Positions 554 to 64,000 of a stretch of DNA of 64,000 nt are shown piece by piece. Origin of the DNA: Escherichia coli (GTDB taxonomy: Bacteria > Pseudomonadota > Gammaproteobacteria > Enterobacterales > Enterobacteriaceae); assembly GCF_050920415.1 (NCBI RefSeq), contig NZ_CP169309.1; one strand, written 5' to 3'. Position 1 is the first letter of the stretch. The number at the start of each line of letters is the position of its first letter. Made by a program: the position numbers and the translations under genes. The notes under the pieces are model-generated. The model was not told the origin of the DNA, searched no databases, and saw nothing but the letters and a program-made list of their open reading frames with translations.

Positions 554-2557
554 TCAGGCACCTTTCACTCCCAGTACCTTATGCGCTTTTGCCACAATAT
601 TCTCGGCGGTAAAGCCAAAGAACGGGAACAGCTTATCCGCAGGAGCAGATTCCCCATAACCCGTCATCCCGACAATTGCCCCTTTCAGACCAACATATTT
701 GTACCAGTAATCGGCGATGCCTGCTTCCACCGCCACGCGAGCCGCAACGTTAGAAGGCAACACCGACTCCCGATATTCCTCATCCTGGGCGTCGAAAATA
801 TCGGTCGAGGGCAGGGAAACTACGCGTACATTGCGACCTTCTCCCGCTAATTTCTCCGCTGCTTGCAAGGTGATTTCCATCTCTGAACCAGTGGCAATCA
901 AAATAATATCCGGCTTGCCGCCGCTGTCTTTCAACACATAACCACCGCGGGCAATCTCTTTTACCTGATCTGGCGTACGTTCCACCTGGGCCAGATTCTG
1001 CCTTGAGAGGATAAGCGCCGTCGGCCCGTTGTGACGCTCGACCGCCAGCTTCCAGCCCACCGCAGCTTCCACCTGATCACACGGTCGCCAGGTGCTAAAA
1101 TTCGGCGTCAAGCGCAGACTGGCCAGTTGCTCAACGGCCTGGTGGGTCGGACCATCTTCCCCTAAGCCAATTGAGTCGTGGGTATAAACCATAATCTGCC
1201 GCGCTTTCATCAGTGCCGCCATCCGCGCGGCGTTACGAGCGTATTCAACAAACATCAGGAACGTCGCGGTATACGGCACGAAGCCGCCGTGGTGCGCAAT
1301 GCCATTGGCGATAGCGGTCATACCAAATTCACGCACCCCGTAGTGAATATAATTCCCCGCCGGATCTTCCTTCAGCGACACAGAACCTTTCCAGATGGTG
1401 AGGTTGCTGGGAGCCAGATCCGCCGAACCGCCGAGCAACTCAGGCAGCATCGGCCCGTAAGCGTTAAGCGTATTTTGTGAAGCCTTACGGGTAGCGATTT
1501 TCGCCGGATTCGCCTGCAACTCATTGATATATTTCTGAGTCGTTTTCTCCCAGTCTTTTGGTAAACCACCGCTCATCCGGCGAGTAAACTCTTCTGCCAG
1601 TCGCGGATGAGCCTTTTTATACGCGGCAAACTTCTCATTCCAGCTCTGCTGTGCTTTATCGCCTTTTTCGCGGGCATCCCAGGCGTGATAAATCTCTTTG
1701 GGGATCTCAAATGGCGGATGATGCCAGCCCAGTTTCTGTCGTGCCAGCGCCACCTCTTCTTCACCCAGCGGTGCACCGTGGGCCTCTTCTTTACCCGCTT
1801 TATTGGGTGAACCAAAGCCAATCACCGTACGGCAGATAATCAACGACGGCTTATCTTTTACGCTTTGCGCTTCAAGAATCGCTTCCTTCACCGCCTGCGG
1901 ATCGTGACCGTCGATTTCATGGATCACATGCCAGTGATAGGCTTCAAAACGTTTTGCCGTATCGTCGGTAAACCAGCCTTCGGTTTCACCGTCGATGGAA
2001 ATACCATTGTGATCGTAAAAACCAATCAGCTTGCCCAGCCCCAGCGTGCCCGCCAGCGAACAGACTTCGTGAGAAATACCTTCCATCAGGCAGCCGTCGC
2101 CCATAAACACATAGGTGAAGTGATCGACAATTTCATGATCCGGCTGGTTAAACTGCGCCGCCAGTGTACGTTCTGCTATCGCCAGTCCGACCGCGTTCGC
2201 CAAACCTTGTCCAAGTGGACCGGTGGTGGTTTCAACACCAGGCGTATAGCCAATCTCCGGGTGACCAGGGGTTTTCGAATGCAACTGACGGAAGTTCTTC
2301 AGCTCTTCCAGCGGCAGGTCGTAACCGGTCAGATGAAGCAAACTGTAGAGCAGCATCGACGCGTGACCGTTGGAGAGAATAAAGCGGTCGCGATCATACC
2401 AGGTTGGATCGTTGGGGCTATGTTTAAGAAAATCGTTCCACAGCACTTCGGCAATATCGGCCATGCCCATCGGCGCGCCGGGATGACCAGAATTGGCTTT
2501 TTGCACCGCATCCATACTGAGCGCGCGAATCGCATTGGCAAGGTCTTTTCGGGACAT
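554..2557 (-). CDS. tktB: Transketolase 2
   Basis: ORF 554..2620 trimmed to the internal ATG giving [31 protein letters not shown]..., 667 aa; transketolase TPP-binding N-terminus; the upstream extension would run into talA. Confidence 0.93.
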
Positions 2558-2576
2558 ATAACACTCCGTGGCTGGT

Positions 2577-3527
2577 TTATAGTTTGACGGCAAGAAGATC
2601 TTCCAGTTTGCGTTGATCAACGGCGAACAGGCGGATGCCTTCAGAGAGTTTTTCTACCGCCATTGCATCCTGATTGTGCTCCCAACGGAACTCCGCTTCG
2701 CTCATCGGGGCTGGGCGTGGGAACGTCTGAGAAGGCGGGATTAATTTACGCACTACTGGAGAAACTTTTTCCTGCAGCTCCTTCAGCAAATTCGGCGCAA
2801 TAGTCAGTCGATCACAGCCGGTTAAGGCGAGGATTTGTTCGGTGCGACGGAAGCTCGCGCCCATTACAATGGTTTCGTAGTGGTGTTGCTTATAGTAGTC
2901 GTAGATATTGCGCACTGACTTAACGCCCGGATCTTCTTCCACCACATACGGGTCCATCGGCTTACGCGCCTGATACCAGTCATAAATACGCCCGACAAAC
3001 GGCGAAATCAGAAAAACGCCTGCTTCTGCACAGGCCCGCGCCTGAGCAAAAGAAAACAGTAGCGTCAGGTTGCAGTTAATACCTTCTTTTTCCAGTTCTT
3101 CTGCCGCGCGAATTCCTTCCCAGGTTGAAGCCAGCTTGATCAGAATACGTGATTTCTCAACGCCTTGTTGCTGATACAGGTCCACCAAATGGCGCGCCTT
3201 CTCAATACTTTTTTCTTTATCAAAAGAGAGGCGTGCATCAACTTCTGTTGACACGCGACCGGGTACGATTTTGAGAATTTCAGTGCCGAAATTGACCGCC
3301 AGTTTGTCACATGCAGCGACCACCTGTTGTTCCTGGGTCTTGCCATTTTTTTTACCCCAGGCGATAGCATCGTCTATTAAATGCTCATATTGTGATAATC
3401 CGGCAGCCTTGAGTAACAGCGAAGGATTGGTGGTGGCATCCTGGGGATGATAATGGCGAATGGACTCAATATCACCACTGTCTGCCACGACAGTGGTGAA
3501 CTGTTTGATGCCGTCTAACTCGTTCAT
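2577..3527 (-). CDS. talA: Transaldolase A
   Basis: 316 aa, [23 protein letters not shown]... transaldolase; talA-tktB operon arrangement. Confidence 0.93.
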
Positions 3528-46888: not shown

Positions 46889-48913
<2,025 letters not shown>

Positions 48914-48914
48914 G

Positions 48915-49133
48915 ATGGAAAAAGAGCAGCTGATTGAAATAGCCAATACGATAATGCCGTTTGGCAAATACAAAGGGCGTCGATTAATCGACCTGCCGGA
49001 GGAGTATCTTCTGTGGTTTGCCCGCAAAGATGAGTTCCCGGCAGGGAAGCTCGGTGAGCTAATGCAAATCACGCTGCTGATTAAAACCGAGGGGCTGACG
49101 CAACTGGTCCAGCCCCTGAAACGCCCACTTTAA
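48915..49133 (+). CDS. ypeB: Small protein YpeB
   Basis: ORF trimmed to ATG 48915, directly after the ligA stop; 72 aa, MEKEQLIEIANTIMPFGKYKGRRLIDLPEEY... Confidence 0.8.
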   Translation: MEKEQLIEIANTIMPFGKYKGRRLIDLPEEYLLWFARKDEFPAGKLGELMQITLLIKTEGLTQLVQPLKRPL

Positions 49134-50128
49134 GCTTTATCGGCGCTGCTTTCCTGCTGCGCCTGTAACTGTTCGGTCTGGCGTTTGTATCGACGCGCCA
49201 GCACCGCACAGACCATCAATTGGATCTGATGGAAAATCATCAGAGGCAGCACCATCATACCGATCACCGATGTGGGGAACAGAATGTTTGCCATCGGGAT
49301 GCCATTTGCCAGACTCTTTTTCGAACCACAAAAGACGATAGTAATTTCATCTGCCTTATTGAAGCCTAGTCGGCGTGCCATAAAGACGTTAACTACAATC
49401 ACGATAGCCAGAAGAACGCAACTGACCACCACGATAAACAGCAATGATCCCCAGCCAACTTTGTGCCAGATACCGTTAACGACGGCTTCGCTGAATGCCG
49501 TATAAACCACCAACAGAATGGACGTCTGGTCAGTTTTCGCAATCCATTTTTTATTACGCGACACCCAGTCACCAATCCACGGCCGCGAAAGATGCCCCAA
49601 CACAAATGGCAGCAGCAGTTGCAGCATTATCTTACCTACCTGCTCAAGGCTGCCCCCTGCACCGTGAACATTCATCACCAGGCCAACCAGCAACGGTGAA
49701 AGGAAAATCCCCAGTAGGCTGGATGCTGACGCAGAACAAACCGCCGCCGCGACGTTACCGCCCGCCATTGACGTGAAGGCGATTGCAGACTGCACGGTCG
49801 CGGGGAGAATGCACAAGTAGAGAAAACCGGAGTAGAGCATCGGGTCGACATTTACCGGTTTCCACCACGCAAACAGCACGCCCAGAATCGGAAACAGCAC
49901 GAAGGTGCTGCACATTACCCATAAATGCAGTCGCCAATGACCACCGCCTGCAATAATGGCCTCTCGCGATAACTTCGCGCCGTGCATAAAGAACAGCAGA
50001 GCAATGGCTGCGGTAGTCAGATTTTCAAAGAAGGGAACGAAATCGCCCCTGGCCGGAAAGAAAGAGGCCAGCAACACCACCGTGATCAGGGTTAAGGTGA
50101 AAGGATCGAGGATACGAAAAAGTTTCAT
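49130..50128 (-). CDS. yfeH: Putative Na+-dependent transporter of the bile acid:sodium symporter family, YfeH
   Basis: 332 aa polytopic membrane protein. Confidence 0.85.
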   Translation of the reverse strand: MKLFRILDPFTLTLITVVLLASFFPARGDFVPFFENLTTAAIALLFFMHGAKLSREAIIAGGGHWRLHLWVMCSTFVLFPILGVLFAWWKPVNVDPMLYSGFLYLCILPATVQSAIAFTSMAGGNVAAAVCSASASSLLGIFLSPLLVGLVMNVHGAGGSLEQVGKIMLQLLLPFVLGHLSRPWIGDWVSRNKKWIAKTDQTSILLVVYTAFSEAVVNGIWHKVGWGSLLFIVVVSCVLLAIVIVVNVFMARRLGFNKADEITIVFCGSKKSLANGIPMANILFPTSVIGMMVLPLMIFHQIQLMVCAVLARRYKRQTEQLQAQQESSADKA

Positions 50129-50217
50129 AAAGACTCCAGATGATCGATGGTTCTATTGTGCTTCTTCCAGTTTGAGAAATAAAATTGATTTATTGCATCC
50201 ATTCATGAAGAAAACAG

Positions 50218-54597: not shown

Positions 54598-55482
54598 ATG
54601 GAACGCATATATAGAACAGATCTTAAGTTGCTCCGTTATTTTCTTGCCGTAGCGGAAGAGTTGCATTTTGGTCGCGCAGCAGCGCGTTTAAATATGTCTC
54701 AGCCTCCGCTCAGTATTCATATTAAAGAGCTGGAAAATCAACTCGGCACGCAGCTTTTTATTCGCCATTCGCGCAGCGTCGTACTGACACACGCGGGCAA
54801 AATCTTGATGGAAGAATCGCGTCGATTGCTGGTGAATGCAAATAATATATTGGCTCGGGTTGAACAAATAGGTCGGGGAGAAGCAGGGCGGATTGAACTC
54901 GGGGTTGTGGGAACGGCAATGTGGGGACGGATGCGCCCGGTTATGCGGCGATTCCTTAGAGAAAATCCTAACGTTGAAGTTCTGTTTCGCGAAAAGATGC
55001 CCGCGATGCAAATGGCCTTGCTGGAACGCCGCGAACTTGATGCCGGGATCTGGCGAATGGCGACAGAACCACCGACTGGTTTTACCAGCTTACGGTTGCA
55101 TGAATCGGCGTTTCTGGTGGCGATGCCTGAAGAGCATCATCTCTCATCATTTTCCACCGTCCCGCTGGAAGCGCTACGTGACGAGTATTTCGTTACAATG
55201 CCGCCCGTGTACACTGACTGGGATTTTTTGCAGCGAGTTTGCCAGCAGGTGGGATTTTCACCGGTTGTTATTCGCGAAGTTAATGAACCGCAAACGGTAC
55301 TCGCCATGGTCAGTATGGGTATTGGTATCACATTGATAGCGGACAGCTACGCGCAGATGAACTGGCCCGGTGTCATATTCCGTCCGCTCAAAGAACGCAT
55401 CCCGGCAGACTTATATATTGTTTATGAAACGCAGCAGGTGACGCCCGCGCTGGTTAAACTGCTGGCGGCGTTGGCGCAGTAG
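54598..55482 (+). CDS. xapR: LysR-family activator of the xap operon, XapR
   Basis: ORF 54583..55482; start taken at ATG 54598 (MERIYRTDLKLLRYF...), 294 aa; the 54583 ATG is an alternative. Confidence 0.88.
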   Translation: MERIYRTDLKLLRYFLAVAEELHFGRAAARLNMSQPPLSIHIKELENQLGTQLFIRHSRSVVLTHAGKILMEESRRLLVNANNILARVEQIGRGEAGRIELGVVGTAMWGRMRPVMRRFLRENPNVEVLFREKMPAMQMALLERRELDAGIWRMATEPPTGFTSLRLHESAFLVAMPEEHHLSSFSTVPLEALRDEYFVTMPPVYTDWDFLQRVCQQVGFSPVVIREVNEPQTVLAMVSMGIGITLIADSYAQMNWPGVIFRPLKERIPADLYIVYETQQVTPALVKLLAALAQ

Positions 55483-55500
55483 ATGAGAGGCACGGGAACT

Positions 55501-55540
55501 GCCGGACATAGTTGGTCTGATAAGCGAAGCGCATCAGGCA
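55501..55540. repeat. REP element downstream of xapR
   Basis: gccggacatagttggtctgataagcgaagcgcatcaggc. Confidence 0.6.
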
Positions 55541-55552
55541 ATTTCGCAAATT

Positions 55553-55607
55553 GCAGATAGTAAAAAAGCGCCTTTAGGGCGCTTTTTTACATTGGTGGGT
55601 CGTGCAG
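55553..55607 (-). repeat. Direct repeat copy 1: tRNA-Lys 3'-end fragment plus terminator hairpin
   Basis: gcagatagtaaaaaagcgcctttagggcgcttttttacattggtgggtcgtgcag; on the minus strand this reads CTGCACGACCCACCA (tRNA 3' end) followed by an A-run/gcgcc/ggcgc/T-run terminator. Confidence 0.7.
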
Positions 55608-55674
55608 GATGACTCGCTTCGCTCGCCCTTCGGGCCGTCGCCGCGAGCGGCTCCGTTGTTTCGCTGCGCTCAAC

Positions 55675-55698
55675 TCGAACCTGCTGCAGGTTCGAATC
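55675..55698. other. Palindrome built from head-to-head tRNA T-arm fragments
   Basis: tcgaacctgc-tgcaggttcgaatc; GGTTCGAATC is the conserved tRNA T-arm, present in both orientations. Confidence 0.55.
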
Positions 55699-55708
55699 TT
55701 TGAGTATC

Positions 55709-55763
55709 GCAGATAGCAAAAAAGCGCCTTTAGGGCGCTTTTTTACATTGGTGGGTCGTGCAG
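55709..55763 (-). repeat. Direct repeat copy 2: tRNA-Lys 3'-end fragment plus terminator hairpin
   Basis: 55-bp copy with one mismatch to copy 1, 156 bp downstream of it. Confidence 0.7.
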
Positions 55764-55927
55764 AATCCTTATTCAGACTCTAACCTTTTGAAAAATCAAG
55801 AGATATAACACTAACAACCATCACTGTGGGCCTAATTATAGGCCCATTTTTGAAAGCTGCAAGTAAGAATTGATTTTGGTGATTTAAGTGCACAATTTTC
55901 AGGCAGCGCGGGAGTTGCAGCGGCATA

Positions 55928-56227
55928 TCAGGAGATCATTAACCCGGATTCACCTTCCACGATCACACCACCATGTTCGGTGGTATCTCCCATACGGGCA
56001 ACGGCTTTACCGTTAATTTTGAGAACCGTTGAACCGGAAACAATAGTGTCTTTGCTACCGCTACCTTTGCAGGTGAGCTTATCACCCACCAACGCCAGCG
56101 GAACACCATTATACGTAACAAAGGTCTGCTGACATTCACTGACCGGGCCACCAATATGTGGGCGGGGGCCGGGATCAACTTTCGGGCAGGTATGGTTATG
56201 TCCTTTGAGTACCACGGCTTTACTCAT
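55928..56227 (-). CDS. PAAR-domain protein (putative T6SS spike-sharpening protein)
   Basis: ORF 55928..56317 trimmed to ATG 56227, which overlaps the upstream stop as ATGA; 99 aa, MSKAVVLKGHNHTCP...LKINGKAVARMGDTTEHGGVIVEGESGLMIS with a PAAR-like KAVAR motif. Confidence 0.7.
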   Translation of the reverse strand: MSKAVVLKGHNHTCPKVDPGPRPHIGGPVSECQQTFVTYNGVPLALVGDKLTCKGSGSKDTIVSGSTVLKINGKAVARMGDTTEHGGVIVEGESGLMIS

Positions 56228-56982
56228 CGTCTGTTCTCCTGCGCAGTTTTTGTGAATATGTCCAGAAGTCGCCAGTAAGCATACTCCTGTTGTCCCAGAT
56301 TCAGGCAACCATACCACCGTGGATGCAGAGGATCATCAAAACAACGAAATCCGTCATAATATTGGGCTACTGCCAGTAGCACTTCGGCCTGTCCGCCGGA
56401 TTCATAGCGGGATAGCGCCCGCCTTGCACTAGCCATCAGTTGTCGGTATATATTTTCATATAGCTCAACTGTTGGCGAAAAAGCCGTTCTTTTTTCCACC
56501 GTATACAGGCGGGTGAAAATCTGACCACTCCCCAGCCAGGCATTGTGATATTGGGGGATAATGCAGTGAGGCGTATCCGGCCCCCAGGAATGTTTATAGT
56601 GTTCACTAAGCCAGTCAACAGACCAGTCATCTTTATGTGCTATCAGGTATGCAGGTATAGTCTCATCTTGCGGGGATGTCTTTGCACTAATGTAGTGTTC
56701 AACAATTTTCTGCAATTCCGTATAGCGGACATCCTCCATAAAAAACGATCCCAGGCACAATCTGGCACTGGCAATATGTATAGCAAGCAATTGATCAGGA
56801 ACTTTTTGAGTCTCAGTCCATTGATAGCTCTGTCTGATTAATTCATCAATAGCGGATGCGGGAAGCTTTCTGTCGGTAATAACCTTACCAAAGCGGTTTA
56901 CCAGCCAGACGCGGCCCTTTTTCAGAAATTCCATCATCCGGTGCTCCGCCAGACTACGGTAAGTTGCTTCTGTTATCCTCAT
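56224..56982 (-). CDS. Hypothetical protein, paralog of the 309-aa upstream gene; candidate T6SS immunity protein
   Basis: 252 aa; shares FMEDVRYTELQKIVEHYISA and LLAIHIASA motifs with FVKEALYTQNEVLLKEWLTA and IVLAIEMLAS of the neighbour. Confidence 0.45.
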   Translation of the reverse strand: MRITEATYRSLAEHRMMEFLKKGRVWLVNRFGKVITDRKLPASAIDELIRQSYQWTETQKVPDQLLAIHIASARLCLGSFFMEDVRYTELQKIVEHYISAKTSPQDETIPAYLIAHKDDWSVDWLSEHYKHSWGPDTPHCIIPQYHNAWLGSGQIFTRLYTVEKRTAFSPTVELYENIYRQLMASARRALSRYESGGQAEVLLAVAQYYDGFRCFDDPLHPRWYGCLNLGQQEYAYWRLLDIFTKTAQENRR

Positions 56983-57014
56983 GACTTCAGCCTCTCCCTT
57001 ACGCTATTGCAACA

Positions 57015-57944
57015 TTATTTAAAAAGCGTTTTTGTAAAAGCCAATTCCGGGTTAATGGCGATCAGTTTATCCAGCAATGGATAAAACCACTCCGGGGCAT
57101 TCCAGCGGCTGAAATCGGGGCGATGATCAATTGCCAGCGGTGTTTTTAACAGCGGATGATCGATTTCTGGGGTGGAAAGACCATGCTCTGCCCGAAAATT
57201 TTTTACTGCCTGATATTCAAACGGCCAGAGCAGCAATTCTCGGTCTTCAATTTCATAACCATTTCTGGCATATTCGTCTTCAGTTGTTTCGGTACGTGCC
57301 GACCATTTAAGATGGTTATCGCAAAGTGCTGTCAGCCACTCCTTCAGCAAGACTTCATTCTGTGTGTAGAGCGCTTCTTTTACAAACTGGGTATAAAAAC
57401 GATCAGAGGGGATACCAAATGTCTCCCAGTTGATAGTTTGTTTCTGTTCGCTGGCAAGCATTTCAATTGCCAGCACAATCATTTTTTGCGGTTTAAGCTT
57501 TTTAGCTTTTGCTACGTCAAAGTTTTTCAAACCTTGGGTGAAATAAGGATAATAAAGACGGGCGATATCAAGACGATGCGTTGCCATAAATGATAGGAGT
57601 GGAATTCCTTTCTTATAGAAAAAACCATCTAAGAAACCTGTGGTTTTAGAATATTGAATGGCTTCACAAAACAAATTCATGGATTTACATGCAACATAAT
57701 CACATATTAACGAGTTATCCTCTTTGTTTTTGTAAAATAAATACCACGCATATAGATAACAAAAGGATGAAGCTGCATCATAGAATATATATTGTGAATC
57801 AGATATTTCCTCGCCATTCGAATTGCCCACTTCTAATAAAGCATCAGAAATATCCTCATTGGAAATGTTTATATATCTGTTAACATCCATGTTAAAGGAA
57901 CTTTCATTAACAAAATAAGAATGAATTTCATTGTATCTTTTCAA
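57015..57944 (-). CDS. Hypothetical protein, paralog of the 252-aa downstream gene; candidate T6SS immunity protein
   Basis: 309 aa; AT-rich N-terminal third; C-terminal region homologous to the 252-aa ORF. Confidence 0.45.
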   Translation of the reverse strand: MKRYNEIHSYFVNESSFNMDVNRYINISNEDISDALLEVGNSNGEEISDSQYIFYDAASSFCYLYAWYLFYKNKEDNSLICDYVACKSMNLFCEAIQYSKTTGFLDGFFYKKGIPLLSFMATHRLDIARLYYPYFTQGLKNFDVAKAKKLKPQKMIVLAIEMLASEQKQTINWETFGIPSDRFYTQFVKEALYTQNEVLLKEWLTALCDNHLKWSARTETTEDEYARNGYEIEDRELLLWPFEYQAVKNFRAEHGLSTPEIDHPLLKTPLAIDHRPDFSRWNAPEWFYPLLDKLIAINPELAFTKTLFK

Positions 57945-57946
57945 TT

Positions 57947-58972
57947 TTAATTTCCTTCTTTTTGAGGAAGACTACTGTGAAAAGGAATATCCGTTTTAAA
58001 TTTATCTTTGACTATTTTTGCATCACCAAACCACAAGGAAATAGATGACATTCCCTCTGGGCAAGCTATGTTTTCAATTAATTTATATTCTTCGTTTATA
58101 CCTTGACCAATAACAAGTCCTATAACGCCCATTTCACCATTAGGTTTATTTTGATCTCGAAGTGCTTTTAGCAATTTTTTTACATTTCTTCGTTTTTCAT
58201 CATCCATCACATAACCACCTGGATTTTCTTTATTCATTTTTAACGCATTTTCAATTCTCTCTATAGCATAGTCAATGGCTCCCTCCTGTTTCTCTGATAA
58301 AATACCTTCATACTGCGTAAAATCACCTGCATCGTCACCATGACATGCCTTTGTTTTTACTTCACAGATCAGCCAAAAATCATCCGGCGGCGGTGAAGGG
58401 TTTTTTACTTTAGCAACAAGATCAAGGCCGTTTTTGGTTTTGACGTGCTGAACCGACATCACCGAACCTTCTACTACGCTGAAGTTAACGGTAGCCGTTG
58501 CCTGTTTAGCCTCCTTATTATAGATATGAAATTGTGCATTTCCCTGTTTCATCTTCCTGGCGAGAAGCACCTCGCCAACATCACCAGTAAACTGATTGAT
58601 TTTCAAAGAAAATAAGCTATCAAAAATCTTATTTTTAATCAAAAAATTAGCAACCTCAGTTGCGCTCATGCCAATTTCTGTATCGCCATTAACCTTTACG
58701 CGAAATGTTGCGTGTGTTGTACTGCCAGGCTCAAGCTCTGACTCAATACGTACAATTGCTTCCGTTGCATCTTTATTACCGGAACCTGACGCATGTGTTA
58801 TCCCTACAGTAATCCTGGTCGGGCCGGCTTGTTCTTCAAAAGTGGCAAAGGCCGTATTGGCTCTGAGGACTTCAGCCTCGGCTTCTTTTACTCTTTTCGC
58901 ATCATTAATCGCACGCCGGTTTACCTGCGTAACATTTACTGCATCTTCGATAGCCCCTGTACCTTTTCCCAT
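57947..58972 (-). CDS. Hypothetical protein with a possible PD-(D/E)xK nuclease motif; candidate T6SS toxin domain or immunity protein
   Basis: 341 aa; start overlaps the upstream stop as TAATG; literal PDDFWLICEVK matches the P-D...(D/E)-x-K pattern. Confidence 0.4.
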   Translation of the reverse strand: MGKGTGAIEDAVNVTQVNRRAINDAKRVKEAEAEVLRANTAFATFEEQAGPTRITVGITHASGSGNKDATEAIVRIESELEPGSTTHATFRVKVNGDTEIGMSATEVANFLIKNKIFDSLFSLKINQFTGDVGEVLLARKMKQGNAQFHIYNKEAKQATATVNFSVVEGSVMSVQHVKTKNGLDLVAKVKNPSPPPDDFWLICEVKTKACHGDDAGDFTQYEGILSEKQEGAIDYAIERIENALKMNKENPGGYVMDDEKRRNVKKLLKALRDQNKPNGEMGVIGLVIGQGINEEYKLIENIACPEGMSSISLWFGDAKIVKDKFKTDIPFHSSLPQKEGN

Positions 58973-60306
58973 TATTTTTCCACTCCCTGGTCTTCATTCT
59001 CAATCTTCATTGAGGAAACCTCTACTTCATTTACCAGTGCAACCTTACTGCCAAGGTAAGCGCCGCCACCACTGGTAACTAATGCTGAAGCAAATTTATA
59101 TTGTGGTTTTTTACCAAATACCATCAGGGTATTTATTGCATGAAAGGCCACTTCAATATTATGTCCCCCACCTGATTTTTTATCCAGATAGCGGGAAAAC
59201 TCAAGCAGTGGATTATATCCATCGGCTTTTGAACCAAGCCACCGATTACGCAGTTTATCCGCTACCTCAATACCATGATTGACATCCACAACAAGCATAG
59301 CAATACGAAGAACCTTCATTGAACCTTTTAAAAAAATAGTCCCGGAAACAATAGCAGCAATCGTCAGAAGTGCATCAGCGACCTCTAAAATAACATCCCT
59401 TACAACATCAAGAGACCGGTTCTCATCAGCCTGATTAAGAACGGCACGGATAAATTCTTCCGCCAGATCAGAGGGGGATTTATGTAATGGGCCGGCCAGT
59501 CTTTCAGGACGACTTCCTGCACTATTTGTCGCCAGCTCACCATATATCAGCGATACATCAAGTGTTTCATATGGACGGTATTTCAGTTGCTCATCGGTTA
59601 ACACATCCCGGTATTCAGCAGGAAGACCTATCGGAACTTCTGCATCTCTGTAGATATAAATATCCGGCGCAACCTCAACAACAAAATCATCTCCCCAGAA
59701 TGTACTGCCATGAGTTCTGGCATGTTCCACTTTATAATTATTACTGTAATAAGGGATAATATTTGCACCAACCTCATGGTATCTTAATTTAAATTTAGCA
59801 TCTTCCAGTTGAACGGTTTCTCCTTTATATTTAACAGCAAACCCGTTGCCGTCTGGGCTTTCCCTGGCCTGTTCGTCAAAAAGCAGTGCAAAATTGAGAA
59901 ATGCTTCATCCCCAAGTTGTTTTCTGACGGCATCAAAAAACGCATCCATTGCCACAATTTCTTTTGCTGTTTCAATAGCATTTCTTTCCGCATCCGTTAA
60001 ATCTGGCGAGTCCTGTATTGTTGCATAACGGGTGATTTCATTATTCAGACTACGGAGTGGAATACCTCGCTGTAAATGTACCTGTGAGGTCTTCTTATCC
60101 ACTGGCTCAAAGAAAGATCCCATGAAACTGGCTGTATTCTTATAAAAGTCTTCTATCGCCTGCTGTCCCTCAGCCGTTGAGCTGTCAAACTCCACAAAAG
60201 CGCCAAATGGTTTCAGCGGGCATGTTGCTGTTGCGCTTTTTGCATCACACGGTATTGCGTCAGAAGGAATGCTTCCCGTTGCCGCTCCGTCAGTATCATC
60301 CATCAC
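58972..60306 (-). CDS. Hypothetical protein; candidate T6SS cargo effector partnered with the DUF4123 adaptor
   Basis: 444 aa; sits directly downstream of the DUF4123 gene, the canonical effector position; hydrophobic segment ALLTIAAIVSGTIFL; no GxSxG lipase motif. Confidence 0.45.
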   Translation of the reverse strand: MMDDTDGAATGSIPSDAIPCDAKSATATCPLKPFGAFVEFDSSTAEGQQAIEDFYKNTASFMGSFFEPVDKKTSQVHLQRGIPLRSLNNEITRYATIQDSPDLTDAERNAIETAKEIVAMDAFFDAVRKQLGDEAFLNFALLFDEQARESPDGNGFAVKYKGETVQLEDAKFKLRYHEVGANIIPYYSNNYKVEHARTHGSTFWGDDFVVEVAPDIYIYRDAEVPIGLPAEYRDVLTDEQLKYRPYETLDVSLIYGELATNSAGSRPERLAGPLHKSPSDLAEEFIRAVLNQADENRSLDVVRDVILEVADALLTIAAIVSGTIFLKGSMKVLRIAMLVVDVNHGIEVADKLRNRWLGSKADGYNPLLEFSRYLDKKSGGGHNIEVAFHAINTLMVFGKKPQYKFASALVTSGGGAYLGSKVALVNEVEVSSMKIENEDQGVEK

Positions 60307-60322
60307 TTACACTCCTTTTTTG

Positions 60323-60898
60323 CTATATAAAGACCAGACTATTTTTTTCTTTTGGGTTTTCACAAATAATATTTGTCAGTCCGGTGGTAAATTCTGCAAA
60401 ATCGTCCGCAGGTAAAAAAGGAATAAAATCCCGCACTGTTTCAGGCGCATAATACCGGAACATGACCCACATTTTATTTACCTCATCATAAAGCTGATTA
60501 AATTTTCGCAGATGATGAGTCAGTTCATTCAGGGAAAGATAGCTGCGGATAAAAATACCCCAGCCATTACCCCGGCTGCTTCTTATCAGCCATTCCGTAA
60601 ATGGCTTATCTTTTTCCAGCCGGACGATATAAGGCGCATAAAGAGAAAACTGTTCTCCCAGTTCACCTTTCCATAAGCATGACCATTCCGTCTCATACGC
60701 ATCAAGTAAAACGGCAATATCCGGTTTTTTTAATGCATCAATGATGGCATAAGTGTGGCAGTCAGTTATTTTACTGGCAGATATCACTGATATATCATCA
60801 GATGCTGTTTTTTCCGGCATACTGAAAAGAAAGCCTGTCAGCGCATCCTGGTATAATTGTGTATCTTCCGGCACATCAATAATTTTCAGTCGGCTCAT
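60323..60898 (-). CDS. DUF4123-family T6SS effector adaptor/chaperone (Tap/Tec-like)
   Basis: 191 aa; YAIIDA, YAPYIV, HLRKF and RYYAPETVRDF motifs match my recollection of the DUF4123 signature; ATGA overlap with the vgrG stop. Confidence 0.75.
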   Translation of the reverse strand: MSRLKIIDVPEDTQLYQDALTGFLFSMPEKTASDDISVISASKITDCHTYAIIDALKKPDIAVLLDAYETEWSCLWKGELGEQFSLYAPYIVRLEKDKPFTEWLIRSSRGNGWGIFIRSYLSLNELTHHLRKFNQLYDEVNKMWVMFRYYAPETVRDFIPFLPADDFAEFTTGLTNIICENPKEKNSLVFI

Positions 60899-62967
60899 TT
60901 TTTCCCGTCCTCTTCTTCGGCCTGTTTTGCTTTCGCACAGATTTCGCAGAACGGTTTGCCCTCATTCACCATCGCCGTCAGTGCTTCCACCTGATCCACG
61001 CCGCCGCCCCGGATATCCATTGCTGGCGTCAGGATCTGAAGTTTTTTTGCCTTTATCGTAACGCCACCACCATCAATGGTCAGACTGCCGCCAGGCCCGG
61101 CGATCACCAGTCGCTCTCCGGCGTGCATAATGTATTTATTGGTCTGCGAAAAAATCTTCGTATTTACCGTTTCATCCTTCACGCCCTGGATCACCACCGT
61201 TTTATTGCCGCCAATATCGTCCAGGGAATCAGCAAATATTTTCTTTCTTTCCGAACTGTTCACCACCAGCGTCCGGTTTCTGTCCACTTCGATTTCCTGA
61301 TCCTGAACCACCCGGACAACGGAGTTCCTGCCGATGGTTTCATAGTGATCCCGGCCCACATCTGTTTTCTTGTCCTGACCAATGGTTTCCTGCTGGTCAA
61401 CGCCCACGCTTTTGGCGCGGTTATTACCGATGGTATGGCTTTCATCGTGCAGAATTTCCGTCACATGGTCTTTCTGCGCGTGCATATAGACCTGTTCCCG
61501 GTTTGTGGCGTCTTCAAAACGCAGTTCATTAAAACCCTCGCCCCGGTAGGTCTGCGTGCGGATAGTGGTCTGCGTTTTCGTTTCCGGTAAATCCCCCGGC
61601 GAGCGATTTTTCTCATGGTAGGTGCGCCCCATGATGATCGGCTGGTCAGGATCACCGTTTAAAAAATCGACAATCACCTCCTGACCCACACGCGGAATGG
61701 CAAGATGACCAAATCCCGTCCCGGCCCATGGCTGTGATACTCTGATCCAGCAGGAACTGTTCTCATCCTGTTTGTGATAACGATCCCACAAAAATTTCAC
61801 CCGCACCCGGCCATGCTCGTCGCAGAAGATTTCCTCACCTTCCGGCCCGGTGACGACCGCTGGTTGTGGGCCATCCACTTTCGGCTTAGGCTGCGGCGTG
61901 GGACGCCAGGTTTTATCCGCTGGTATGGCCTGAAACGTATTCACCAGCGTGGTTCCCTGGCCCCGGCTTCCGGGAACGGCCTGCGGCTGCTCGCCGTGCA
62001 GTTCGCTGGCGATCACCTGCCATTCCCGGTTCAGATCGTCAGCCGGATGATCGGTCAGCGTAAAGCGCGTACCGGGCCACAGTTTTGGCGAGTTGCTGCA
62101 TCCCCTGGCGATCTCCGCATCATTGCGCCAGCCTTCCATCTGGTAACGGGTAAAATCTCTGCCATGCTGTTCGTCCTTAAAACGCCCCGGATAGTCCATC
62201 ACCTCATACTGGTTGCGCTGGCCGTTAAGACTGGCGGCATTATGGCGAAAACGCCCCGGCCAGTCAGGGTATTTGAAGGTGTAGTCTTTGCTGATGACAT
62301 ACGCCGGGCGTATCTGCGCACTGTGGCGGAACTGGCTGATATACTCCGTTTCCGTGGCGCGGGGTTCCGGGTTAAACGGAAGGGGGAAGGCTTCCGGCAG
62401 GTAGTAAACTTTATCGCAGAACACCAGCGGCTGATCCTTCCCTTCACGGGCGTGCTCTTCGTAAAAAAATATCCCTTCTTCCGCCAGCAGGCGGCAGAGA
62501 AAACCAAAATCAGTTTCACCGTACTGCACGCAGAACTCCCGCGCCGGATGAGGCTCGCCCAGCAGATAAGCCGTCTGCATCACCCGGTTGTCATCCAGCA
62601 GGTGCTTAATAATGGACTGAATATCCTGCTGCTGAAAATGGCGAAAATTTTCCCGCAGGCTGCTGCGCCAGAAAGGAGGATGCACCCGCAGGTAGTAGTT
62701 CATTTTATGACCGTCATATTCCCCGCGCTCAATCCTGGCTACCAGCCCGGTGATATGGCGCTGTGCGGTATTGTTTTGCCACAGGGTAAGCGTGGCATTC
62801 AGTTCCAGCAGTTCCGTAGATTTAAGGTGGATAGTGTCGCTGATGAGATGAAGATCGAGGGTGAATAATGCGGAGTAATGCTGGGTAAGATGAAAGTTTA
62901 CGACGGCAAAGGTTTCTGTATCAAAATCGCCGATATCAACGGTAAAACGGGTTCCTGTCCGGGGCAT
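60895..62967 (-). CDS. vgrG: Type VI secretion system spike protein VgrG
   Basis: 690 aa; gp27/gp5-like body, e.g. CDEHGRVRVKFLWDRYHKQDENSSCWIRVSQPWAG and repetitive beta-helix region; short C-terminal tail EGKPFCEICAKAKQAEEEDGKK. Confidence 0.9.
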   Translation of the reverse strand: MPRTGTRFTVDIGDFDTETFAVVNFHLTQHYSALFTLDLHLISDTIHLKSTELLELNATLTLWQNNTAQRHITGLVARIERGEYDGHKMNYYLRVHPPFWRSSLRENFRHFQQQDIQSIIKHLLDDNRVMQTAYLLGEPHPAREFCVQYGETDFGFLCRLLAEEGIFFYEEHAREGKDQPLVFCDKVYYLPEAFPLPFNPEPRATETEYISQFRHSAQIRPAYVISKDYTFKYPDWPGRFRHNAASLNGQRNQYEVMDYPGRFKDEQHGRDFTRYQMEGWRNDAEIARGCSNSPKLWPGTRFTLTDHPADDLNREWQVIASELHGEQPQAVPGSRGQGTTLVNTFQAIPADKTWRPTPQPKPKVDGPQPAVVTGPEGEEIFCDEHGRVRVKFLWDRYHKQDENSSCWIRVSQPWAGTGFGHLAIPRVGQEVIVDFLNGDPDQPIIMGRTYHEKNRSPGDLPETKTQTTIRTQTYRGEGFNELRFEDATNREQVYMHAQKDHVTEILHDESHTIGNNRAKSVGVDQQETIGQDKKTDVGRDHYETIGRNSVVRVVQDQEIEVDRNRTLVVNSSERKKIFADSLDDIGGNKTVVIQGVKDETVNTKIFSQTNKYIMHAGERLVIAGPGGSLTIDGGGVTIKAKKLQILTPAMDIRGGGVDQVEALTAMVNEGKPFCEICAKAKQAEEEDGKK

Positions 62968-63406
62968 AACGTTTCCTTAGCAATAATACGGCTCAGAGAT
63001 AACGAAATCATTCATGAGCAATATGAATTATGATTAATAATTCGTAAAAGGAATGTATTTTATAATGACTCTTCCTGTTTTTAGTCAAAGTTGTCATTAT
63101 AATTAATATTATACTAATTAATTTCCAGAAAACTTCTGTAACCAGTAAAAACACTGCTCCGACAACCTAACATAATGTAAATTAACACTATTAACTGGAA
63201 ATTATCATCTTTAAGTTTACATAAATTCCGTGATGCATATCGCAAAGCGGTGATAAATATATATCCTGTGAAAATGAACTTTGCACCTCCACAGAATATG
63301 TTAACGTAATATCATATGGTAGCAGAAGGCTATTAATTAATTATCCGTATTATAAATCTTGTCTGACGCCTTTCTGTTTCTGCTGTATTACGGGAAGGAT
63401 TACCTA
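62968..63406. promoter_or_regulatory. AT-rich divergent control region between vgrG and tssF
   Basis: 439 bp, visibly AT-rich (runs such as ttataattaatattatactaattaattt); no ORF; flanked by divergent starts. Confidence 0.5.
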
Positions 63407-64000
63407 TGGCAATGAACGAACGTTTTTACCGGGAAGAACTGGATTATCTTCGTCAGTATGGCGCGCTGCTGGCGCAGGAATATCCCGCCCTGAAATCTTT
63501 CCTGGGCAGTAAAAACGCTGATCCGAACGTGGAACGCCTGCTGGAAGGGTTCGCGTTTCTCTCCGGCAGACTGCGGGAAAAAATCGAGGATGAGTTTCCC
63601 GAAATCACCGTTCCGCTGATTAACCGTCAGTGGCCCAATTATTTGCGCCCCGTTCCGCCGATGACCGTTATCGAATACACGCCGGACAGCTGCAGGCTTA
63701 CCGCTCCCCTGACCGTTTCACGCGGTGAGCAGGTGATGAATCCGGGGCAGGACAGCCAGCCGGAAAACAGCCGCCCCGGTGATGAATCAGGGGCTACCGG
63801 GGGGCCACCTTCCTGTATCTTCACTTTGTGCCGTGATATCCGCCTCCTGCCGTTGTGCATTGAAACAATACAGAGTCGCAGCAGCCCGCAATCCAGTACC
63901 CTTGATCTCATTTTCACCGTGACGGGAAAAGGCCGGATCGCCACCGCCGATCTGAATCAGATCAGTTTCTGGCTGGGCGATGCGGACGAACGCAGCCGCA
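63407..64000 (+). CDS. tssF: Type VI secretion baseplate protein TssF (ImpG/VasA family), N-terminal 198 aa; continues beyond the window
   Basis: Open frame from ATG 63407 to the window end with no stop (absent from the ORF track for that reason); MAMNERFYREELDYLRQYGALLAQEYPALKSFLGSKNADPNVERLLEGFAFLSGRL... matches the TssF N-terminal signature. Confidence 0.75.

Follow-up and report, generated by a model that had tools for sequence, protein, structure and literature searches.

The two direct repeats and the T-arm palindrome that lie between xapR and a genomic island in this Escherichia coli chromosome are, very probably, jointly explained by a known and already annotated element, the RtT RNA, standing next to a routine tRNA-island junction. 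Within the window (the whole stretch of DNA analysed, 64 kb in length), an RtT RNA of the Lys type occupies 55593..55718 on the minus strand, and the island takes up 55767..64000 and runs on to the equivalent of window position ~71726, as judged from the PGAP annotation and profile searches. The original prediction had read the repeats and the palindrome as a scar of integration at a tRNA-Lys gene. Its derivation of the sequence from lysV and its placing of an island boundary here were borne out, but the duplication and the palindrome are present in island-free strains as well and do not belong to the insertion.

Locus and gene order

In a search of 5,426 complete E. coli genomes with a 501-nt query spanning the repeats, the chromosome of strain MFDS1022581 (NZ_CP169399.1) matched with 100% identity, and no second genome among the 5,426 matched over >80% of the query length. 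Positions in the locus of this strain (L001) are converted to window positions by adding 35399. On the backbone side, the gene order annotated by PGAP is cysA ... xapA-xapB-xapR, followed by the RtT sRNA and a PAAR gene. From PAAR the order continues with four hypothetical proteins, a DUF4123 protein, VgrG, TssF, TssG, a hypothetical protein, an HTH protein, an integrase-domain protein and an integrase, and past the integrase come tRNA-Lys, three tRNA-Val genes and gltX. The xapR coding sequence in the backbone flank (54598..55482, plus strand; PGAP annotation of NZ_CP169399.1) ends at 55482, as does the listed open reading frame. ARAGORN found no tRNA gene in the 64-kb window, in agreement with the earlier statement that no intact tRNA is present; the intact lysV lies outside the window, 16 kb off, next to the integrase. 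In K-12, the annotated operon valU-valX-valY-lysV adjoins xapR, which is the arrangement that the prediction had named.

Identification and distribution of the RtT element

The segment 55593..55718 (minus strand) matches Rfam family RF00391 over its full length (model positions 1-130) with 51.6 bits (E = 2e-8; gathering score 45 bits), and PGAP annotates an RtT sRNA with identical coordinates. The score of the Lys type is just modestly over the threshold because the Rfam model is centred on the Tyr type; with a self-built model, R1, the score is 127.8 bits. RtT is also annotated by PGAP at lysV and lysQ of K-12 and four times in the tyrT operon, in addition to the MFDS1022581 locus.

The arrangement seen in the window, namely repeat, RtT, repeat, is found in K-12 between xapR and the intact lysV, and again in strain 98198, the flank of which is 98.9% identical to the window. 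A near-identical unit, including the 61-nt repeat described below, lies behind lysQ of K-12, and the tyrT-tyrV operon of K-12 holds four Tyr-type copies. In 1991, Bösl and Kersten reportedly described rttR, together with repeats of 178 bp, in the tyrT-tyrV operon of E. coli. The xapR-side repeat together with the RtT body was detected in 1,912 of the 5,426 complete E. coli genomes (35%), always with an intact lysV and without the island, and a Lys-type RtT body at any site in 3,243 (60%), with a median of two places per genome. The RtT sequence starts 31 nt past lysV in K-12, in strain 98198 and in the other island-free carriers, while strains without RtT at lysV, of the type of Z0117EC0062, have exactly one repeat copy. 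The expectation that the structure would be confined to strains with the T6SS island thus failed, as K-12 and 1,911 other island-free genomes have it.

According to the passages of the literature consulted, the tyrT RtT is released as a stable RNA from the processed tRNA operon transcript (PMC3318445, PMC4986893, citing Bösl & Kersten 1991), and Lys- and Asn-tRNA-linked RtT copies were seen on Northern blots in Actinobacillus (PMC4986893). An effect of RtT on the stringent response has been proposed, and its role is described in these passages as otherwise not established (PMC7542023; bioRxiv 10.1101/2024.07.17.603846; PMC3318445).

Direct repeats, terminators and T-arm palindrome

The predicted pair of 55-bp direct repeats with one mismatch was recovered at 55553-55607 and 55709-55763 (0 and 1 mismatch), and none of 100 dinucleotide-preserving shuffles of the window gave any match to the 55-mer. 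At 95% identity, the match can be lengthened to 61 nt (55550-55610 and 55706-55766). Copy 1 (55550..55610, minus strand) aligns with the equivalent K-12 segment and consists of the RtT-closing terminator and 18 nt that repeat the 3' end of tRNA-Lys. Copy 2 (55706..55766, minus strand), recognized by the repeat match, consists of the native lysV terminator region and a remnant of the lysV 3' end; in K-12 and strain 98198, its counterpart closes the intact lysV at its 3' end. The direct repeats are the two ends of one RtT unit.

Both copies carry the tRNA-Lys 3' end on the minus strand, as had been proposed: the sequence CTGCACGACCCACCA, which is the lysV 3' end as found in K-12, occurs at 55593-55607 and 55749-55763, with an expectation by chance of 0. 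In the left-hand repeat the identity to lysV covers 18 of 18 nt, so that 55593..55610 (minus strand, ATCCTGCACGACCCACCA) represents a pseudo-3' end of tRNA-Lys and an empty potential secondary attB. In the right-hand repeat it covers 15 of 15 nt, or 17 of 18 once the change from G to A at 55764 is included.

A hairpin of the form A6-GCGCC...GGCGC-U6 stands 3' of each tRNA-Lys end copy in the tRNA sense, in agreement with the terminator hairpin expected in each repeat. The hairpin closing RtT (55560..55590, minus strand; inverted repeat I2) and the native lysV hairpin (55716..55746, minus strand) are both predicted at -19.1 kcal/mol, with z-scores of -6.87 and -6.16, respectively, and by RNA folding both have the stable GC-rich stem and the U6 tail of intrinsic terminators. 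The hairpin is symmetric, with an A6 tract upstream, and is therefore potentially bidirectional; that at 55560-55590 is also located downstream of xapR on the plus strand. A simple consensus terminator scan listed neither hairpin, though both are obvious on direct folding, probably because stem extension consumes the U-tract.

Between the repeats, the T-arm is present in both orientations, as the original prediction held. The palindrome (55675-55698, or 55673..55697 on the minus strand), delimited from the sequence, the fold and the alignment to the Tyr type, consists of an inverted T-arm paired with the 5' half of a direct T-arm, and folds into an 11-bp RNA hairpin. A 14-nt inverted repeat (I3, 55523-55536 and 55610-55623, 86%) was dismissed as being at chance level.

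Architecture and predicted structure of the RtT RNA

On the minus strand, the RtT RNA is composed of a 12-nt leader, the inverted T-arm, the 5' half of a direct T-arm, a GC-rich hairpin core and ATCCTGCACGACCCACCA. The element at 55550-55766 is the normal 3' trailer of the valU-valX-valY-lysV operon, reading on the tRNA strand as the lysV terminator, a 12-nt spacer, an RtT body of ~95 nt, the 18-nt copy of the tRNA-Lys 3' end and the second terminator. The body resembles the 3' half of the upstream tRNA, with its T-loop split after TTCGA by ~64 nt of GC-rich hairpins and with the inverted copy of the T-arm placed before the split T-loop. By inference, RtT forms a structured trailer RNA that ends like a tRNA in ...ACCA, and would be transcribed only on read-through past the terminator and then trimmed by tRNA-processing enzymes. 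As RtT-Lys stands behind a strong predicted terminator, it may be produced at a low level only.

In the alignment, the Lys, Tyr and Ser types share one plan: an inverted cognate T-arm, the direct T-arm 5' half up to TTCGA, and a core of 64-70 nt made of small GC-rich hairpins. After the core, all types continue with (A)ATCC and the 3' strands first of the T-stem and then of the acceptor stem, and finish with ACCA; the Lys and Ser types also include a terminator. The flanks copy the cognate upstream tRNA (Lys, Tyr or Ser), and the core is common to all. In the lysT operon of K-12, every tRNA-Lys gene is followed by a shorter RtT-like spacer that ends in GAGTCATCCTGCACGACCCACCA.

Three core hairpins were assessed in a 14-sequence alignment, in which 88.7% of the cells are paired; when the partners were slid, pairing fell to 27-45%. 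Seven of the 15 core pairs have changed on both sides, and none of 500 shuffles reached the observed covariation score, in a test made on 14 related sequences with a structure specified by hand. The first core hairpin (GTTG...CAAC in Lys, CTCG...CGAG in Tyr) was excluded from the count because it has no single register in the MAFFT alignment. For so few and related sequences, the covariation would favour selection on the folded RNA. The outer stem of the Rfam model, in which the 5' inverted tRNA copy pairs with the 3' tRNA-like end, was not recovered in the Lys type, where cmscan marks non-canonical pairs; in the minimum-free-energy fold of this type, the inverted T-arm pairs with the adjacent direct T-arm half. 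The fold of the whole RtT-Lys RNA has a z-score of -2.4, which is not very unusual.

Integration of the island at lysV

The alignment to K-12 lysV and the comparison with empty-site strains, both suggested with the original prediction, gave an exact junction. The window is collinear with the empty-site strain 98198 to 55763 and diverges from 55764, and the same breakpoint is obtained in the alignments with K-12 and Z0117EC0062. The distal att core is the 15-nt perfect direct repeat CTGCACGACCCACCA at 55749..55763 (minus strand), the second copy of which lies in the intact lysV (L001 36328-36342), 15,978 bp away. The tRNA-like similarity reaches beyond the core as far as 55766, interrupted by a single mismatch at 55764 that comes from the island, and no more than the innermost 15-18 nt (55749-55766) of the right-hand repeat make up the integration junction.

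The proposed search for a nearby integrase located a P4-type enzyme 16 kb away, next to the intact lysV. It has 403 aa, lies ~265 nt from lysV and scores 521 bits with PRK09692 (cut-off 434). Among species-representative genomes, relatives at 84-86% identity were found just downstream of tRNA-Lys in four of four loci, three of them in a record titled Martelella alba BGMRC 2031 and one in a soil MAG, and relatives at ~55% identity stand next to tmRNA. In the 40.5-kb locus there are five copies of the octamer TGGGCCTA (1.1 expected by chance; none of 100 shuffles reached 5), all of them at the two island ends. Two form an inverted pair at 55827..55846, 61-80 nt in from the distal end, and the other three are found at 125-175 nt from the core on the lysV side; the same triplet is found beside the related integrase in L048, the soil MAG locus discussed below. 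From their position, these motifs are candidate arm-type sites of the integrase. No excisionase was identified among the island proteins, the HTH protein being SfsB/Ner-like but under the family cut-off.

The junction is a textbook case of site-specific integration at the 3' end of lysV by a P4-type tyrosine integrase. The island of ~16 kb entered by recombination at the last 15 nt of lysV, leaving a rebuilt lysV beside the integrase, and the displaced 3' end, the native terminator and RtT by xapR. Behind the intact lysV, an island-borne hairpin with a U8 tail (-23.1 kcal/mol) takes the place of the native terminator. In MFDS1022581, the val-lys operon would accordingly now end at a predicted terminator supplied by the island, and the native lysV terminator (55716-55746) would now stand downstream of the vgrG-to-PAAR string rather than of lysV. 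RtT-Lys appears severed from its tRNA promoter, and its production would proceed only via read-through from the island.

Island cargo and frequency

The part of the island in the window encodes a PAAR protein, four proteins without family assignment, a DUF4123 chaperone and VgrG, and takes in the beginning of tssF. The PAAR-domain gene (55928..56227, minus strand; PGAP; NCBIfam T6SS_PAAR_dom, E = 5e-9) is the last of the vgrG-to-PAAR string and is transcribed towards RtT, and VgrG (TssI) is encoded at 60895..62967 on the minus strand (TIGR03361, 599.8 bits). A candidate effector of 443 aa directly follows the DUF4123/Tla1-like chaperone; Pfam and NCBIfam gave no family match for it or for three neighbouring proteins. 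TssF and TssG both score over their equivalog cut-offs, and the remaining island proteins are a hypothetical protein, the SfsB/Ner-like HTH protein, a weakly matching XerC/D-like integrase-domain protein and the P4-type integrase.

The label of T6SS locus attached to this region was overstated. From the complete core set TssA-TssM (13 genes), only VgrG, TssF and TssG are encoded in the island, accompanied by PAAR and the DUF4123 chaperone. The cargo amounts to a VgrG-effector module plus two orphan baseplate genes, short of a complete T6SS. The full island, its junction and its integrase were each found in one of the 5,426 complete E. coli genomes.

RtT units in relation to integrases, and alternative origins

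The locus L048 from the soil MAG connects the two neighbouring features. It reads three tRNA-Val genes, lysV, a terminator, RtT, a terminator, a second and longer RtT, island sequence and an integrase, and its island sequence is homologous to the lysV-proximal end of the window island. The element there occupies an RtT unit at its pseudo-3' end of tRNA-Lys and leaves lysV untouched. In K-12, there are 12 copies of the 15-nt tRNA-Lys att core for six tRNA-Lys genes. From the L048 sequence, the one example, RtT pseudo-3' ends appear usable as secondary attachment sites by this integrase lineage; alternatively, L048 would result from recombination between repeats after an integration at lysV.

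A second observation came from IMG/VR, where a scan with a 16-mer core motif gave at least 120 matches, mostly by chance, and where the covariance model confirmed RtT in only two, L071 (an E. coli-like Tyr type) and L074 (a Ser type). L074 is a GC-rich provirus contig with a Ser-linked tandem array, in which two units score 54.0 and 53.8 bits with Rfam; the array is wedged between a prophage and an integrase gene. Because of the insertion at an RtT end in L048 and the array between prophage and integrase gene in L074, we consider, as a tentative and rather unlikely proposal, that RtT units, by multiplying the tRNA 3' end together with the terminator, serve as secondary or decoy att sites for tRNA-specific integrases, or are themselves mobilised by integrases. 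If true, islands could land behind a tRNA gene and not in it, and recombination between RtT units could let them stack or be exchanged. The use of pseudo-ends would hint at a role of the RtT RNA family at the DNA level, or at least at a consequence there.

In a rival account, RtT units descend as relics from ancient tRNA-targeting integrative elements, or are miniature elements that can still be mobilised, the 156-bp unit being an integrated mini-circle with an attP that copies the tRNA 3' end. The repeats would in that case be a scar of integration, left by an element far older than the island and different from it. The flanks do always match the cognate tRNA (Lys, Tyr, Ser), the tRNA-like sequence is broken at the T-loop, a classic integrase crossover site, single units are exactly present or absent among E. 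coli strains, and units form tandem arrays, those of L074 amid prophage and integrase genes. However, homologous recombination or slippage between the 61-nt repeats explains exact gain and loss equally well, and the covariation of the hairpins favours selection on RNA structure. RtT-like units are moreover co-transcribed between the tRNA genes of the lysT operon, and RtT has no consistently linked integrase; we regard this origin as improbable.

Still less credit can be given to the reading from which the analysis started, in which the repeats and the inverted T-arm are the scar left when the T6SS-related island integrated or recombined at tRNA-Lys, for instance through tandem or abortive integrations. 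It draws on the facts that the right-hand repeat does stop at the island junction, that duplication of a tRNA 3' end is the usual mark of island integration, and that a related island attached at an RtT pseudo-end, so that the two features interact. The structure, however, exists without the island in K-12 and 1,911 other genomes, and also at lysQ and, linked to Tyr, at tyrT, whereas island and integrase were found in one genome of 5,426. The repeat measures 61 nt and includes a terminator, as against the 15-nt direct repeat of the island itself, and the RtT body belongs to a conserved, covarying RNA family. An assembly artefact or chance similarity, which has nothing in its favour beyond the general risk of mis-assembling short tandem repeats, is practically negligible given that none of 100 shuffles produced a match and that the identical arrangement recurs in thousands of independently assembled complete genomes.

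The explanation by a native RtT element beside an island junction carries a caution for annotation: a duplicated tRNA 3' end beside an island is not automatically an att scar, and the native RtT repeats in the Lys and Tyr tRNA operons of E. coli mimic one.

Comparison with known systems

The unit in the window resembles the RtT RNA of RF00391 in its GC-rich core (AGGTTCGA..GAGCG..CGGCCCGAAGGGCGAG..GAGT.ATCC), in its location directly behind a tRNA gene, in a 3' end that copies that of the tRNA (...ACCA), in the inverted T-arm at its 5' side and in the possibility of tandem repeats. Unlike in the Tyr type, its flanks copy tRNA-Lys, a 6-nt deletion has made its third core hairpin smaller, and a local T-arm hairpin replaces the outer stem. 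It further differs from known RtT in that each Lys unit has a predicted intrinsic terminator and that the window unit is 16 kb away from its tRNA operon.

The island shares with P4-type tRNA islands (PRK09692 / CP4-57-like) an integrase adjoining an intact tRNA gene, a far boundary marked by a short repeat of that gene's 3' end, an exact empty site in related strains and cargo of foreign origin. Unlike the known P4-type islands, it targets lysV, for which a literature search returned nothing relevant as an island integration site in E. coli, and its integrase belongs to a tRNA-Lys-specific lineage otherwise seen in other Enterobacterales-like genomes.

A structural counterpart is a tRNA-Asn island located by mtfA in E. 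coli O145:H28 and ~580 other genomes, which is laid out in the same way: PAAR, effector candidates and VgrG share one strand, the opposite strand encodes TssF, TssG and a hypothetical, an HTH and an integrase-domain protein, and at the end of both islands there is an integrase beside the tRNA. The two are ~84% identical in DNA over the module from TssF to the integrase-domain protein. The window island differs in its terminal integrase, its tRNA target (Lys vs Asn) and its effector cargo, and it lacks the HigA gene present in the tRNA-Asn island. It is a tRNA-Lys-targeting member of a modular family of VgrG/PAAR islands.

Terminators and candidate integrase sites at the island ends

Insertion of the ~16-kb island at the 3' end of lysV has exchanged the terminators of this gene in the window strain. 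The rebuilt, intact lysV, outside the window, is immediately followed by a hairpin that the island supplies (-23.1 kcal/mol, U8 tail; positions 36240-36300 of L001, the locus of this strain that reaches beyond the window), and the native lysV terminator (window 55716-55746) now stands behind the PAAR gene of the island. The octamer TGGGCCTA is found five times in the 40.5-kb locus, always near an island end. Two copies form an inverted pair at the distal boundary (window 55827-55846); of the three beside the integrase (L001 36155-36205), two are direct and one is inverted. Judged from their placement, the octamers are candidate arm-type binding sites of the integrase. The arrangement is also kept in L048, a locus from the soil metagenome-assembled genome CTSoil_132 (JAGTSE010000042.1).

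Possible use of RtT copies as attachment sites

The L048 island is a close relative of that in the window; the two integrases share 86% identity across the matched region. Its junction (L048 7275-8060) does not fall at lysV; the island abuts a pseudo-3' end of tRNA-Lys that belongs to the second of two units of RtT, the RNA that trails tRNA genes, giving the order lysV, terminator, RtT, terminator, RtT', island. Since the island is joined here to an RtT pseudo-3' end, RtT copies can possibly serve as secondary attB sites, L048 being the single example.

The tRNA-Lys-specific integrase also occurs three times in the genome of a record titled Martelella alba BGMRC 2031 (L006, L007 and L008). Each copy has its own tRNA-Lys gene at a distance of ~265 nt, and one of these genes has anticodon CTT. 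The synteny at L008 (val-val-val-lys and two tRNA-Ala genes) is enterobacterial in look, whereas the record name is alphaproteobacterial, and the taxonomic label may be wrong.

RtT-like units at other tRNA genes

A shorter, unannotated RtT-like spacer was found after each tRNA-Lys gene of the K-12 lysT-valT-lysW-valZ-lysY-lysZ-lysQ operon (positions 2100-3050 of locus L004), consisting of a GTTGC...GCAAC hairpin followed by GGCCCGNAGGGC and then GAGTCATCCTGCACGACCCACCA. These spacers score 48-54 bits with our own RtT model (R1, filters off). With one after every tRNA-Lys gene, the operon holds the 15-nt att core 10 times within 1.2 kb.

A tandem array of at least four RtT-like units lies behind the 3' part of a class-II tRNA on the IMG/VR provirus contig IMGVR_UViG_2521172693_000001 (L074, 9900-10800), which is GC-rich and Pseudomonas-like (putative taxon). 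The anticodon loop is CTCGAAA and the tRNA is probably a tRNA-Ser. The array has a period of ~184 nt, with two subtypes alternating, and each unit is closed by 21 nt of the class-II tRNA 3' end. Phage portal/capsid genes flank it on one side and a tyrosine integrase ORF on the other.

Repeat variation and backbone features

Few positions vary in the 61-nt repeats (ATT/ATC...AGT/AGC; window 55550-55561 versus 55706-55717, and the equivalents in L002 and L003). Which of the two copies carries which variant differs from strain to strain, and the RtT-less allele has a mixed form, ATT...AGC. This shuffling is consistent with gene conversion between the repeats and with loss of a unit when they recombine. 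A REP-like palindromic unit, GCCGGACATAG...CTGATAAGCGAAGCGCATCAGGC (window 55500-55545), was identified by eye in the stretch that separates the xapR stop codon from repeat copy 1; K-12 and the RtT-less strain have kept it too. Elsewhere in the backbone, PGAP annotates an IS2 copy between yfeH and yfeR (window 48911-50139, minus strand), encoding an IS3-family transposase with a programmed frameshift.

Island cargo and a related island

Four consecutive island proteins of 237, 309, 341 and 443 aa are encoded on the minus strand between the DUF4123 chaperone and PAAR genes (window 56224-60303). None has an NCBIfam match, and the 443-aa protein has no Pfam match either; by position, they are candidate T6SS effector/immunity proteins of unassigned type.

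A structurally equivalent island is found at tRNA-Asn beside mtfA in E. coli O145:H28 RM12761 (L172, 2460099-2483558). It carries, on one strand, PAAR, two hypothetical proteins and VgrG, and beyond VgrG, TssF, TssG, a hypothetical protein, an HTH protein, HigA and an integrase-domain protein, followed by an integrase. The module from TssF to the integrase-domain protein is common to ~580 complete E. coli genomes at roughly 84% identity. The islands of the window and of RM12761 look like members of a modular family with exchangeable integrases.
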